From a candidate division TA06 bacterium (lineage in GTDB: Bacteria > Hydrothermota > DG-26 > E44-bin18), in assembly GCA_004376575.1 (NCBI GenBank), contig SOJN01000046.1, positions 48,709-112,708 on the forward strand: a stretch of DNA of 64,000 bases. Direction: 5' to 3'. How positions within the stretch are numbered: position 1 is the stretch's first letter; every line of letters begins with the position of its first letter. Of the stretch, positions 32,128-43,129 are shown in pieces. A program made the translations under genes and the position numbers. The notes under the pieces are model-generated. The model saw nothing but the letters and a program-made list of their open reading frames with translations, searched no databases and was not told the DNA's origin.

Positions 32128-32280
32128 TTAGTCGCCCGGATCTGGAAGGGGCATAGGTGTGACAGGCCCACTACCAACCGGGGTTGGCGGACCTGCGATA
32201 GTCAACGAAACCCCGAACACCAAAACCGCAGCAAGAACAAGCATTGCGATAATGCTGCCCTTCTTTCTAAGAGGTCTCAC
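32128..32280 (-). CDS. small (50 aa) signal-peptide/TM protein with a Pro-rich tail
   Basis: GTG 8 nt after AGGAGG. MRPLRKKGSIIAMLVLAAVLVFGVSLTIAGPPTPVGSGPVTPMPLPDPGD. Not in the ORF track because it is under 60 aa. It has its own consensus promoter. Confidence 0.45.
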   Translation of the reverse strand: MRPLRKKGSIIAMLVLAAVLVFGVSLTIAGPPTPVGSGPVTPMPLPDPGD

Positions 32281-32358
32281 TTTCAACACCTCCTCTCAAC
32301 CGAAATTCAGTGTTATGTAGAAGTGATCCCCAACCCGTCTTCTTTACCCTTCGTCGGA

Positions 32359-32388
32359 ATTGTAATGGTTTTGTGACACCTTTGTCAA
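32359..32388 (-). promoter_or_regulatory. sigma-70-type promoter (TTGACA-18-TACAAT) for the small ORF
   Basis: Reverse complement reads CTTGACAaaggtgtcacaaaaccatTACAAT. Confidence 0.45.
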
Positions 32389-32502
32389 GTCTTTTTTTCG
32401 CTGGGAGTTATTGTTTTTTCTCGGTGAGATGTGGCTAAAAACCACACTGCGGGAAGGCATAGTGCAACCGTCTGTTGCGTCCTGGGAAGCAGCTTGCCTA
32501 CT

Positions 32503-35500
32503 CTAGGCCAGAGGGGAAGCTCTTCTGAACTCTTCTCTGGCGACTGAATGCTTTTTCATCAGCCTTTGAAGCTGCTGCCTGTGGATTCCCAGTTCCTTCG
32601 CTGCTCTTGTAACATTGCCTCGGGTTCTGACAAGTGCTTCGAGTATCCTCTTCTTTTCCGTGTCGTGCTTCAGTTCCTTTAGCTGGAGACCGGTCGTTTC
32701 CCTGCCAAAGAGGGGGTAGAGGTCTTCTGTGTCTATCCTATCAGATTTTGTCATCACCACTGCACGTTCGATGCAGTTCTCGAGTTCGCGGACATTGCCG
32801 GGCCAGTCGTAGTCCAAAAGACAGCTCATCGCCTCCTTGCTAATTCCCTCAAGCCTCTTGCCTGTTCTGTCTCGGTAGACCTTAAGAAAGTGCTCTGTAA
32901 GCAGAGGAATGTCCTTCTTTCGTTCTCTCAGCGGGGGAATGGAGATGGATATTACGTTGAGCCTGTAGAAGAGATCTTCTCTGAATCTACCCTTGTTCAC
33001 TTCTTCTGGGAGCCTTCTATTTGTTGCACAGATGACTCGCACGTCAACCTTTCTTTGTTCAGTATCTCCCACCCGCCTCGTTTCTCCTTCTTCTATCACT
33101 CTAAGTAACTTTGACTGCACGGCCAGTGGAGCATCGCCAATCTCATCAAGGAAGATTGTTCCCCCGTCAGCGTTTTCAAAGAGGCCCTTTTCGTCACTCA
33201 CCGCGCCTGTGAAGCTGCCTTTCTTGTGACCGAAGAGTTCTGATTCGAGGAGCGGTTCCGGCAAGGCGCTTACCACAACAGTGACGAAATTCTTATTCGC
33301 TCTTTCACTGGAGTAGTGTATTGCCCTGGCGACCAGTTCCTTTCCGGTGCCTGTTTCACCGAGTATGAGAATATTCGACTCTGACTTGGCCACTCTCTCA
33401 ATCAAGTCGTACAGATTCTTCATCTGTTCCGTGGCGCCAATCAGGTTTCTGAAGTGGTACTTCCTCTTCACTTCCAATCTCAAGTAGTCCCGTTCAGCGT
33501 GCAGCTCTCGGTGGTGCTTTGAGTTTTCGATGGCCACGGCTATGAGGTTTGCCAGGGATTCCAGGAACAGTTCGTCCTCTTTCCCAAACAGGTGAGGGGA
33601 GATCCGGCTATCTACGTAAATCGTACCAGTCACTCTATCTCTTATCATAAGGGGGACGCAGAGCAAGGACTTGATTCTGTGGTTGAGGACCGATTTGGAT
33701 CTGCTGAATCTGGAGTCAACCAGGGCATTGCCACTCATTACGGGTTTTCTTCTATTCGCGACTCTGTTCAACACTGAGGTAGAAATCTGCGAGGCATCCT
33801 CTATGGTCGTGCTGTCTATCTCTCGTCCAGCAGCAACCTTTAGCTCTCCAGTTGTCTCATCTACCAGCATGAGGACTCCCCTCTCAGCCTCGAGCAGGTG
33901 GATGACCAGGTCTATCACTCGGTTGAGGAGTTCATCGAGATTCAATATTGAGTTTATTATCTCACTTACCTCGTATATGGTTTTCAACTGGTCTTCCCGA
34001 GTTGAGGGTGCCAGGGACTCAGAGGAGAGCTTTTCCACAAGATCCACGCTCGCCTCATGCACATGTTCCAGATCTCTTTTTGCATTCAGATCCCTGAATA
34101 TACCCTCTGCGTCTTTAAGATAGGAACATGCGGCGCTGAACTCATCGTTCTTTCTGCTTTTTCTCCAGAGGGATATCTTCCATTTTCCCGCTTCAAGGAG
34201 TGCTCTGCCGAGGTCATATCTTTTGCCTAAGCCTGACAAGCCCTGTATCGCTCTGTTGAATTGGTCATCAGCTACCAGCTCATCCCCTTCTGCTACTGCT
34301 AACTGAGCAAGGGCAAGATGTGTGTTTGCAATCTGTGCCGGGTCGTCCACTTCAACAGACAACTGAAGTGCCTCCTCCCCGGATTTCCTAGCATTCTCCA
34401 GATCCCCCTTGGCTGTGTAGACCTCTGCAAGGAGACTCTTTATGATAGACAGCCTCTCGGTGGCACCTCTGGCCTCACTGATTTCAAGACTCCTTTTCAG
34501 GCAGTTCAGGGCCTTCTTCCAATGGAAAGCCTCCCTGTGGAAGTAACCGAGGTCGAGGAGTACGGAGGCCTGTGCAAGAGGATCGCCAAGCCTTTCGGTC
34601 AACGTCAGAGCCCTCTTCAACCTGCTCTCAGCCTCTTCCATATTCCCCAGCCTCAGATGGAGAGTGCCTGCATCCCTGAGGCATGTGGCGAGGTTGGACT
34701 GCTGTCCCACCTGCTCGAACATCGAACTACCCTTCTCAACGAACGATAATGCTTCTTGCCATCTCCCCTGGCGGTCGGCCACAGCGCCCATGTTCATGTA
34801 CAGCTGGCCAAGCACGCTCCTGTCATTCAGTCTCTCAAAAACATTAAGGGACTCCCTGAGATGGGCCGCAGCGTCATCCCAGGAACCTTTCTGCATCTCC
34901 ACAAGGCCAATGTTGTTGTGTGCGCGAGCAACGCCAGCAATATCACCCACCTTTTCCATTATTGTGAGGCTTTGTGCATAACTTTCGATGGCCTTATCGT
35001 ACATCCGTTTGTTCCAGTAGAGTATTCCCAGATTATTGTGAGAACTTGCCATCCCTTTAGCATCATTCAGTTCCTCTTTCATGCGCAGGCTTTTCAGGTT
35101 ACATTCTATTGCCTTCTCAAAATTCTCTCTGCTCGACTTGATGAGACCAAGTACGTGGTAAACACGGGAGAGCCCACGCTTGTCTTCAATCTCCTCGGCA
35201 ACGCGAAGGGCTTGGTGCGCTGATTCTTCTGCCTTGTCATATTCGTCAAATGCTAAGTAGGTGAGCGCCAGTTCGCTGAGAACAGTGACCCTGTCAGTGT
35301 TTTTGTCTTCAGGGATTGCCTTGATAGCAGATTTGAAGATAGCCAGGGCCTCCTCTTTGTTCCCCTTTCTGATGTGAGCCTGGCCGATTTTCAAACTGAT
35401 TCTGGGTGAGGCGGACCTGAAGGAGATAATCTGGTTATATGCATTGAGAGCCTCATCGTACTGTCCCAGTGTTCTGTACAGGTCTCCCACAGCCTCAAGA

Positions 35501-42422: not shown

Positions 42423-42425
42423 TCC

Positions 42426-42848
42426 CTAATTCCTCTCTGCGTTTCTTGCGGCCACTATTTCCCTCTTGGCTTGTGGCGAACACAGGTGTCTTGCAACTAT
42501 CCACCTGATGATTTCGAAGTTTAGCGGTTTTCGCGCATAGAAGACTATACCCAACTTTCTACATGCAATCTCCAGGTCATCTGAATAGTCCGAAGTTGTG
42601 ACAACGATGGGGAATGTAGAATCGAGTTCCCTTATCGTGGAGATAAGCTCTAACCCCCTCATGTCTTTCAGTTGCGTATCAGCAATAAGTATTGACAGAG
42701 CGCTGTTTCTGAATGCGACGAGAAGGTCTGAACCATTCTCAGCAGTAATGACTGAGAACCCCAGTCTTTCAAATGCCCTTCTCAATTTGGTGAGCCACTT
42801 TGAGTCGGCATCTGTGATTCCTATAGTCTTATCCATCGCGTCAACCAT
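42426..42848 (-). CDS. single-domain response regulator receiver (CheY-like)
   Basis: IGITDAD, phospho-acceptor Asp in ILIADTQL, and the conserved T (VVTTS) and K (YARKP). Confidence 0.65.
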   Translation of the reverse strand: MVDAMDKTIGITDADSKWLTKLRRAFERLGFSVITAENGSDLLVAFRNSALSILIADTQLKDMRGLELISTIRELDSTFPIVVTTSDYSDDLEIACRKLGIVFYARKPLNFEIIRWIVARHLCSPQAKREIVAARNAERN

Positions 42849-42883
42849 TTACCACCCTGACTAGGGTGGCACGAAACGTATCA

Positions 42884-42899
42884 TGCAACAATTGTGCCA
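42884..42899 (-). promoter_or_regulatory. sigma-54 (RpoN) promoter, TGGCAC-N5-TTGCA
   Basis: The reverse complement reads ctcTGGCACaattgTTGCAtg, a perfect -24/-12 consensus with correct spacing, about 36 nt upstream of the receiver gene. Confidence 0.55.
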
Positions 42900-43129
42900 G
42901 AGGACGGATCTCTGATGCGGTTTGCTAAAGTTATGATAGATTTGGACTTACGGAGCACACACAGAGCGTCTCGGGGGGGGTGGTTGCAGCTCTGTGTGTC
43001 ACCTTGACACGGAGTCAACCTTCATTTCAGGGAGATACCCAAGGATGGGGACGTTCGGAAGACGGGTCAAAGGTGCCTTGCTTGTGTCAGTCTGGTACTA
43101 TGGGGAAGTACTACGGGGCATTCGTCGGG

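Follow-up and report, generated by a model that had tools for sequence, protein, structure and literature searches.

A sigma-54 signalling locus of a candidate division TA06 bacterium, read as a composite of regulatory, small-protein and protease modules

Does a string of co-directional genes behind a sigma-54 promoter constitute one regulatory cascade, or is it put together from parts under separate control? The question is raised by a locus of a candidate division TA06 bacterium that lies within a stretch of 64,000 nucleotides (contig SOJN01000046.1 of assembly GCA_004376575.1, positions 48,709 to 112,708 of the forward strand). We refer to this stretch as the window and use its numbering throughout; features are on the minus strand unless otherwise stated. 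Downstream of a promoter that we call P1 there are ten minus-strand genes at 32128-42848. Reading away from P1 they encode a single-domain receiver (RR140), a soluble GAF histidine kinase, small protein C, a DUF5678 protein, a retropepsin-like protease, small proteins B and A, an NtrC-type sigma-54 activator (NtrC458), a 1709-aa enhancer-binding protein fused to a serine/threonine kinase (STK-EBP), and a 50-aa peptide that is predicted to be exported. A first-pass annotation of this DNA had taken the string for one operon and one hierarchical or feed-forward cascade with a proteolytic layer. Its gene order and domain calls are borne out by the open reading frames (ORFs) and by Pfam. The single cascade is not supported, and P1 and a second sigma-54 promoter, P2, have different enhancers. 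On balance we favour the reading that the locus is a lineage-specific composite of four modules of different age, with two enhancer-promoter circuits and a captured protease pair.

The gene string and its two sigma-54 promoters

The genes are packed as tightly as first described, with junctions of 3, 17, 34, -4, 57, 81, 83 and 85 nt along the string. A check for internal terminators that might split it found terminator-like sites to be no more frequent than in shuffled sequence (11 found vs 15.2 expected). Inspection of motifs found the catalytic residues intact in all the enzymes and regulators of the cassette, and hydropathy gave no membrane segment in any cassette protein (receiver, kinase, protease or activators), so that all are predicted to be soluble. 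The GC skew and AT skew flip sign over 32000-44500, which fits the sole long minus-strand run in a mostly plus-strand window.

The ten window proteins compared are 100% identical to their counterparts in one Joint Genome Institute metagenome contig and in GCA_030590645.1. The full string is also syntenic in L005, L008, L010 and L011 besides the window's own lineage (WIN/L001), with protein identities to the window of 57-97%; the L005 contig ends inside the STK-EBP gene, and synteny matches up to that point. The common order is NtrC451 (an activator upstream of P1), P1, receiver, kinase, C, DUF5678, protease, B, A, NtrC458 and STK-EBP, with one extra B/A-type copy between B and A in L005 and L010, and the chromosomal neighbourhood of the cassette is identical in each lineage. 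Synonymous divergence (dS) to L005 is near saturation, at about 1.6-1.8, and the fixed gene order is therefore not merely a matter of recent common ancestry. The ratio of non-synonymous to synonymous divergence (dN/dS) is 0.04-0.26 for A, B, C, the DUF5678 protein and the protease, and because these ratios are low at near-saturated dS we take the small ORFs to be real genes. The first-pass annotation had staked its reading on a conserved gene order and on coding small ORFs, and on both counts it stands: the order is kept in related lineages and the small ORFs have homologues under selection.

P1 (42884-42899) has the sequence TGGCAC-aattg-TTGCA, an exact match on the minus strand, and its description as a perfect sigma-54 promoter was correct. 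There are two perfect matches to TGGCAC-N5-TTGCW in the window, P1 among them; with one mismatch allowed there are 12 sigma-54-like matches, vs 2.3 expected. All five lineages keep (T/C)GGCAC-N5-TTGCATG at this position. The spacer between NtrC451 and the receiver gene has a mean identity of 70% in the five-lineage alignment, yet it contains three invariant blocks. These are the promoter itself (GGCAC-N5-TTGCATG), a GTGTC-N5-GACAC palindrome ~110 bp upstream of P1 (42996-43010), and a conserved GACAC half-site, CTGACACAA, ~190 bp upstream (43082-43090). The palindrome, a candidate enhancer (upstream activating sequence), is present as a single exact copy within the 64-kb window, and no enhancer common to the other sigma-54-like promoters of the window was found. 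We observe in addition an inverted repeat, GGCAC...(21 nt)...GTGCC, at 42868-42899, that spans P1 and the first transcribed bases, and a sequence ACGTTTCGTGCCA directly downstream of the -12 element that is kept in all five lineages. These may form an operator or leader element.

The gene for NtrC451 (43130-44485), an orphan activator with receiver, sigma-54 AAA+ and HTH_8 domains by Pfam, stops 230 bp upstream of P1. Its D-box (IIDLKMP), Walker A motif and GSFTGA loop are intact, and it is syntenic in all five lineages with 80-92% identity. The arrangement of activator stop, palindromes and sigma-54 promoter recurs for the other activators that we have analysed, and for that reason NtrC451 is most likely the activator of P1, a candidacy favoured by its position. 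A fourth sigma-54 activator, identified by Pfam and without a receiver, is encoded divergently on the plus strand (44618-45820). The first-pass annotation had counted two RpoN activators, one of them fused to a kinase; both are real, and the neighbourhood holds four. With four GAFTGA-type activators encoded in the window, the genome can be expected to have RpoN.

At the core of the string is a two-component system. RR140 (42426-42848; Pfam Response_reg, E = 3e-15), 57-78% identical across lineages, is followed after 3 nt by the kinase gene (40668-42422). The kinase has GAF, HisKA and HATPase domains by Pfam, the H368 box and the N, G1 and G2 boxes, and no hydrophobic segment; its N-terminal 185 aa match no family even at E = 5. 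NtrC458 (37718-39094) has a receiver, a sigma-54 AAA+ domain with GAFTGA and HTH_8 by Pfam, NCBIfam and motifs, and is 84-95% identical across lineages. Both NtrC458 and NtrC451 carry the marks of the NtrC family, namely the acceptor Asp (VLLDLKMP and IIDLKMP, respectively), Walker A, a GAFTGA-type loop and HTH_8. The NtrC458 ORF is open back to 39178 and probably starts at M29, giving 458 aa. We rejected a 486-aa start, since the 83-nt stretch has frame-breaking indels in L005 and 458 aa is called in four lineages.

In the manner of NtrB/NtrC, AtoS/AtoC and ZraS/ZraR, the locus brings together a HisKA/HATPase kinase, an activator of the receiver-AAA+(GAFTGA)-Fis-HTH type and a -24/-12 promoter with an upstream palindromic enhancer. 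It differs from those systems in its soluble GAF-sensing kinase, its extra single-domain receiver, the five intervening genes and a second orphan receiver-activator. Scores lie far below the equivalog cut-offs: the best NCBIfam model for the kinase is AtoS, with 239 bits vs a cut-off of 646, and the AtoC model gives 480 bits vs 714, so that neither equivalog name applies.

A second set of sites lies downstream of the STK-EBP gene (32503-37632). The palindrome GCAAC-N5-GTTGC occurs twice in the 64-kb window, vs 0.08 expected, and both copies are <500 bp after the STK-EBP stop. The first (32464-32478) is ~25 nt after the stop codon. The second (32037-32051) is extended by a third half-site to GCAAC-N5-GTTGC-N5-GCAAC (32027-32051), and lies ~170-180 bp upstream of a sigma-54 promoter with one mismatch, P2 (31854-31869; TGGCAT-atttc-TTGCT, leader GAAGGCAGGGTGTA). 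P2, its leader, the second palindrome and the third half-site are invariant in four lineages, and the palindromes, P2, the leader and the gene that P2 would drive are conserved in L008, L010, L011 and L056. That gene (31520-31780) encodes an 86-aa orphan protein with a basic tail and is called in L001, L008, L010 and L011; tblastn matches to it are confined to the cassette clade, and it has no family match even at E = 5. Between the peptide gene and P2 there is a weak terminator-like hairpin with a T6 run (31973-31985), which WIN, L008 and L011 share and which a deletion has removed from L010. P1 and P2 are thus alike in being conserved in orthologous spacers with a palindrome ~100-200 bp upstream, as befits sigma-54 promoters.

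The correspondence between these palindromes and the STK-EBP recognition helix, LGIHRQQLQR, can be followed in relatives. STK-EBP genes at 36% identity (L019-L022) have the same palindrome downstream, and then a perfect sigma-54 promoter. Among the proteins compared, the helix LGI(H/K/R)RQQLQR is common to the window clade and the L019-L022 clade only; the helix differs in NtrC458, NtrC451, EBP400 and the STK-EBP paralogues P0054-P0056. When metagenome contigs were scanned with the helix as query, 15 of the 18 RQQLQR activators, among which L058-L069 are close relatives of one another, were followed at 9-80 nt from the stop by one or two GCAA(C/T)-N5-GTTGC sites and then by a sigma-54 promoter. 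None of the 16 activators with other helices had such sites, and ~0.03 sites per locus would be expected by chance. Among the positives are ordinary ~435-aa activators whose target operon is unrelated. We conclude from this comparison of sequences that STK-EBP would bind the GCAAC-N5-GTTGC sites and drive P2, not P1. Since the enhancers of P1 and P2 differ (GTGTC-N5-GACAC vs GCAAC-N5-GTTGC), STK-EBP should exert no feedback on P1. Its site and P2 being distinct from the P1 enhancer, the locus would contain two sigma-54 circuits and not one self-feeding cascade.

Could the whole arrangement be a chance juxtaposition of unrelated same-strand neighbours with a fortuitous promoter-like string? One-mismatch sigma-54-like strings are indeed common in the window, as the 12 found indicate. 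However, the spacers of the four to five lineages have otherwise diverged around an invariant P1, P2 and their enhancers, and the gene order is fixed across lineages. Because the promoters and enhancers are conserved in diverged spacers, chance is effectively refuted, and we give it next to no credence.

The two circuits of the composite that we favour might work as follows. In the first, as suggested by geometry, NtrC451 would fire P1 through the GTGTC-N5-GACAC palindrome and the GACAC half-site, giving a transcript that covers RR140, the GAF kinase, the small-gene and protease stretch, NtrC458 and probably STK-EBP. From what is known of these families, the kinase would sense a cytoplasmic ligand and phosphorylate RR140 and NtrC458; it might phosphorylate NtrC451 too, which would close a positive loop. 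In the second, for which the evidence is comparative, STK-EBP would bind the palindromes downstream of its own gene and activate P2 for expression of the 86-aa protein, and the gene for the exported peptide would belong to the STK-EBP module.

STK-EBP and the adjacent Pro-rich peptide

STK-EBP has the Pfam architecture Pkinase-AAA_16-TPR-GAF-Sigma54_activat-HTH_8. As expected of a Hanks-type kinase, its Pkinase domain (E = 4e-46) carries the motifs LALK, HCDLKPQN (of the non-RD type), DFG and APE. A STAND (signal transduction ATPase with numerous domains) module is recognised by AAA_16 at 103 bits, TPR_MalT at 67.8 bits and the Walker A sequence GERGSGKS, and the sigma-54 loop is GSFTGA. The best NCBIfam match is NifA (TIGR01817), at 424 bits vs a cut-off of 528.85, and the protein is not classed as a NifA. 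Mycobacterial PknK is an example of a STAND/MalT-like Ser/Thr kinase. Kinases of the PknK type share the N-terminal Pkinase-AAA_16-TPR(MalT-like) module with STK-EBP, which differs from them in having a sigma-54 AAA+ engine and HTH_8 as its output. NifA-type activators share the GAF-sigma54-HTH_8 layout with its C-terminal ~500 aa; unlike them, STK-EBP has 1200 aa of kinase, STAND NTPase and TPR in front, and no nif context.

The locus had been put forward as an undescribed system. We find no description of it in the literature, but the STK-EBP architecture itself is widespread: the full-length STK-STAND-TPR-GAF-EBP arrangement is found in dozens of clusters from many phyla. Sister architectures keep the Pkinase-AAA_16-TPR module and swap the output for a histidine kinase or GGDEF. 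The relatives at 36% identity in L019-L022 stand alone, without two-component, small-protein or protease genes. A second STK-EBP paralogue, with 35% identity and a different HTH helix, is found in L024 (GCA_046759105.1, the same metagenome-assembled genome as cassette locus L006). It is followed by GGGCAC-N5-TTGCC and genes for a 136-aa receiver, a 135-aa hypothetical protein and an FG-GAP protein, a layout like that of the right flank of the window. In L058-L069 the ~435-aa LGIHRQQLQR activators are followed by two GCAA(C/T)-N5-GTTGC sites, at +10 and +74 after the stop, and by a sigma-54 promoter at ~+141; the genes behind this promoter, which drives them, encode a lysine-rich peptide of 48 aa and a multi-pass membrane protein of ~420 aa.

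The last gene of the string (32128-32280) encodes the 50-aa hydrophobic, Pro-rich peptide that is predicted to be exported, and has orthologues in L008, L010, L011 and L056. A basic N-region leads into a hydrophobic core (Kyte-Doolittle maximum 2.83) and an AXA-like site with predicted cleavage between TIA and G, and the predicted mature product is the ~20-aa Pro-rich sequence GPPTPVGSGPVTPMPLPDPGD. It belongs to no family even at E = 5. The sigma-70-type promoter that had been ascribed to the gene is present (32359-32388; TTGACA-18-TACAAT, an 11/12 match) and is conserved in four lineages. The peptide had been seen as a mere follower of the operon, and here the first-pass annotation needs revision: analogous peptides come after distant STK-EBP genes, and the peptide is probably tied functionally to STK-EBP. 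In the window clade its gene sits between the two GCAAC-N5-GTTGC palindromes. The L019-L022 clade has a similarly built peptide of 42-51 aa, whose gene is under the direct control of the sigma-54 promoter. The peptides share a P-[LIM]-P-x-P-x-P core, which reads PMPLPDP in the window, PLPLPAPP and PLPIPAPP in L010 and L056, and IPLPAPP and MPIPAPP in L019 and L021. In L023, with an STK-EBP of 32% identity, the corresponding region (10699-11030 of that locus) contains GGCAC-aagaa-TTGCC, then a Shine-Dalgarno sequence (GGAGG) and a Pro-rich 22-aa ORF, MIGTTPFPIPPMPGPVTPPPC, that has no signal peptide.

This layout invites comparison with peptide signalling in Firmicutes. A TPR-repeat receptor with an immediately downstream pro-peptide gene is the defining RRNPP layout (PMC12998947), and a cytoplasmic TPR regulator with a signal-peptide ORF directly downstream is what we find in the window and 36% clades. 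STK-EBP and the exported Pro-rich peptide might then form an RRNPP-like, possibly quorum-sensing, receptor/pro-peptide pair. The peptide would be exported and then cleaved behind the AXA-like site, and the ~20-aa product or its unexported precursor would be bound by the TPR, which with the STAND NTPase and the kinase would switch on the sigma-54 AAA+ domain. Such a pair is consistent with the presence of a P-[LIM]-P-x-P-x-P small ORF directly after STK-EBP in three clades (100-32% identity), and with the position of the peptide gene as a direct sigma-54 target in two distant clades. In the 36% clade the peptide gene also has the activator palindromes upstream, which is the logic of autoinduction.

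As with the RRNPP(A) receptors of Firmicutes, STK-EBP is a TPR regulator with a small exported pro-peptide gene directly downstream, and in the distant clades that gene is under the regulator's own control. Unlike those receptors it has a sigma-54 output and added kinase, NTPase and GAF domains; it shows no detectable sequence homology to them, with no RRNPP-specific family among the Pfam matches shown, and TA06 is not a Firmicute. Moreover, no signal sequence is present in the L023 peptide, the promoter of the peptide gene in the window clade is of the sigma-70 type, the paralogue in L024 precedes receiver and FG-GAP genes and not a peptide, and re-import across two membranes needs explaining. 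The comparison draws on about eight lineages. We think such a receptor/pro-peptide pair quite unlikely, and the parallel with RRNPP is a lead, not a result.

The protease pair and the small proteins

Between C and B lie two coupled genes. The first (40164-40436) encodes a 90-aa DUF5678 protein (Pfam 30 bits vs a cut-off of 23.2) with a conserved C-terminal ...VIL-COOH. The second (39718-40167) encodes a retropepsin-like aspartic protease of 149 aa (Pfam Asp_protease_2 and RVP) whose TTG start codon overlaps the DUF5678 stop as TTGA; the ATGA coupling reported earlier was a misreading. In the protease motifs FLIDTGTP and SLLGRD, residues D35, G37 and P115-R120 are invariant, and T36 and D121 are conserved to >=90%, among 15 homologues. 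The AlphaFold2 (AF2) model has a pLDDT (predicted local distance difference test) of 86, and its best Foldseek match is APRc (5c9f; E = 5e-7, TM 0.63-0.70), with further matches to the proteases of feline immunodeficiency virus (FIV), Rous sarcoma virus (RSV), human T-lymphotropic virus (HTLV) and human immunodeficiency virus (HIV). A single-lobe retropepsin fold is confirmed by this predicted structure. The protease thus resembles Rickettsia APRc (PMC4140852) and RimB (PMC11957791) in its clan AA single-lobe fold and its DTG and GRD motifs. It is unlike APRc in being soluble without a membrane anchor, unlike RimB in having no RimK/RimA context, and unlike both in being always paired with a DUF5678 protein ending LIL-COOH.

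The pair is also found well away from this locus. Homologues of the protease at 49% identity have a DUF5678 partner with a 4-nt overlap (GTGA in L012 and L014), and adjoin genes for PAP2, polyprenyl synthase, ApbE and MoxR in surroundings free of signalling genes. More distant relatives occur in at least 31 GTDB species genomes. These span Chloroflexota (Dehalococcoidia among them), Alpha- and Gammaproteobacteria (Xanthobacteraceae, Roseiarcus and Pseudomonadales) and Chthonomonadia, and include a Methanomassiliicoccales archaeon and a TA06 genome. In all 23 loci inspected, the gene is abutted on its upstream side by a small ORF with a YPxxWV core, most of these ORFs ending LIL-COOH, and seven of the ten upstream partners tested in Pfam match DUF5678 and nothing else. 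We also note that in L012, L014, L016 and L026-L055 the DUF5678 partners have a near-constant x-L-I-L-COOH tail, VIL in the window; this tail is hydrophobic and might dock on the protease as a strand or as a pseudo-substrate. No sequence match to DUF5678 was found in the PDB. The literature found describes no function for it, with mention only in the context of plant-pathogen interaction. From its distribution, the DUF5678 and retropepsin pair is an autonomous two-gene module that is mobile on evolutionary timescales. The proteolytic layer of the first-pass annotation therefore comes down to adjacency, given that the pair is free-standing in at least 31 unrelated genomes.

Such a distribution would also be expected of a selfish toxin-antitoxin-like or defence-type insertion with no signalling role. 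The two genes are small and abut or overlap (TTGA in the window; GTGA in L012 and L014), the pair is patchily distributed across bacterial phyla and one archaeon, as toxin-antitoxin systems are laid out, and the protease has a weak PADLOC match to the candidate defence family PDC-M08B (E = 1e-6), the PADLOC scan otherwise returning generic domain matches only. Against this, DUF5678 has no recognisable DNA-binding domain, there is no evidence of toxicity and no literature on DUF5678 function, and in the cassette clade the pair has been inherited stably at one site, with dN/dS of 0.12-0.18 at dS near saturation. Its conservation in TA06 is compatible with either domestication or a stably inherited toxin-antitoxin-like element. 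We regard the selfish insertion as a minority possibility of some substance. In the composite reading, the pair would have been captured between C and B in the ancestor of the clade and kept by purifying selection.

Proteins C (59 aa; 40471-40650), B (66 aa; 39460-39660) and A (66 aa; 39178-39378) are paralogues by alignment, with identities to A of 55% and 31% and three or four copies per genome; dN/dS is 0.18-0.23 for C, 0.08-0.26 for B and 0.04-0.13 for A. C is present in all lineages, though uncalled as a gene in L010, where the gene finder missed both an A-type paralogue (10479-10842) and the C homologue (9013-9245). There are four small-protein copies in L010 and L005, vs three in the window. 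Relatives form 25 clusters among 5.8 billion proteins and are confined to the cassette clade; a filter-free profile search of 1.84 billion representatives gave 6 hits to the family, and a profile search of the GTDB species genomes gave zero matches. A, B and C have no Pfam (even at E = 5), NCBIfam or PADLOC family, and are unlike any other ORF of the window. A is predicted to have three helices (AF2 pLDDT 76), and its predicted model has no fold match. We would describe them as clade-restricted, tandemly amplified, predicted three-helix proteins.

The invariant residues of the family, from 19 sequences, include E12, L13, E14, R22, T34, Y37 and F53. An Hpt or Spo0E-like identity was rejected, as these sequences have no invariant His and no Pfam match. 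The most plausible role for A, B and C, if a speculative one, is that of small modulators ('connectors') acting on the kinase, the receiver or the activators; alternatively they might be kinase substrates, through T34.

The small genes are associated with a GC hairpin. One copy, GCGGGGTA-N9-TCCCGC, lies directly 3' of gene B (39418-39444), and a second (39134-39160) lies inside the 83-nt spacer before NtrC458. In the form GCGGGGTT-N9-AACCCCGC it is found downstream of 10 of the 12 B/A-type genes of the five lineages (at 7630, 7901 and 8190 in L005, and at 10219, 10495 and 10783 in L010); behind gene B of L008 and L011 no copy was detected. The spacer itself (39095-39177), containing the second hairpin and the NtrC458 ribosome-binding site, is near-invariant in five lineages at dS of about 1.8, and is non-coding, with indels in L005. 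The hairpin has no covariation and a fold energy no better than shuffled sequence, and an Rfam scan of 31-45 kb gave no credible RNA family. Together the hairpin and the invariant spacer point to post-transcriptional control inside the operon, and the hairpin probably sets relative transcript or translation levels within it.

To the right of the cassette, the plus-strand region 44618-63509 looks like a sigma-54-controlled region for surface or secreted proteins. It encodes two receivers of the 125-aa type (46018-46431 and 49406-49864), proteins with C-terminal FlgD_ig domains and a C25 (gingipain-like) peptidase of 1625 aa, as well as one Laminin_G_3 and one FG-GAP protein. These genes are preceded by sigma-54-like sites, at 45903, 49433, 49980 (perfect), 50256, 50513 and 54943.

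Composite or cascade, and what the locus offers

The single integrated hierarchy that was originally proposed can now be weighed against the composite. It would require one P1 transcript, with the protease, the small proteins and the two-component pair acting in series to gate NtrC458 and STK-EBP; the protease might, for example, process or degrade A, B, C or a regulator. The co-directional genes with their short gaps, and an order fixed in five lineages, are what it would predict. The protease is more conserved than RR140 (76-93% vs 57-78%), and bacterial cytoplasmic retropepsins can be regulatory together with partners, for which the partner-dependent RimB of the Pseudomonas RimABK system is a precedent (PMC11957791). 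Nevertheless many unrelated genomes have the protease pair by itself, the protease being accompanied in every case by a DUF5678 partner of its own; STK-EBP is alone in relatives, with an enhancer and promoter distinct from P1; and no sequence feature connects A, B or C to the protease. We consider the single cascade unlikely.

Several points weigh against the composite that we prefer. Co-transcription from P1 to STK-EBP is presumed from orientation, gaps of 3-85 nt and the lack of terminators, and the 85-nt gap before STK-EBP is poorly conserved and could hide a promoter. It is position alone that assigns NtrC451 to P1, and autoregulation by NtrC458 is equally compatible with the sequence. The helix-palindrome count is inflated by kinship, with the independent observations numbering ~4-5. 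In the window clade the peptide promoter is of the sigma-70 and not the sigma-54 type, and the gene is linked to the activator by its place between the palindromes. Finally, conservation of the protease pair (76-93%) is no lower than that of the core signalling proteins, and the pair occupies the same position in every lineage, as integration predicts.

NtrC451, the divergent fourth activator, P2 with its 86-aa ORF and the paralogy of A, B and C are additions to the first-pass annotation. We found no literature on TA06 regulation. The combination seen here is new and includes some true orphan genes, and its parts are of known kinds, belonging to sigma-54 and two-component regulation. A bolder reading is that kinase-STAND-TPR-GAF activators and their adjacent Pro-rich peptides represent an unrecognised peptide-sensing system outside Firmicutes, set behind a two-component operon with three orphan modulators and a domesticated retropepsin pair; as an argument by analogy, we would hold this to be a distinctly outside chance.

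Kinase-fused enhancer-binding proteins are common in databases, and we found no experimental study of this architecture. For these proteins the locus offers a predicted site, GCAAC-N5-GTTGC, matched to the helix LGIxRQQLQR, a target promoter in P2 and a candidate peptide ligand. It also draws attention to the DUF5678 and retropepsin pair as a widespread uncharacterised two-gene module of bacteria and archaea, and to a family of small proteins that is limited to one clade and encoded within a two-component operon. The host is uncultured, and current understanding is not overturned; the value of the locus lies in leads and not in a new principle. These leads are the correspondence between helix and palindrome, the pairing of STK-EBP with a Pro-rich peptide, and the DUF5678-retropepsin module.

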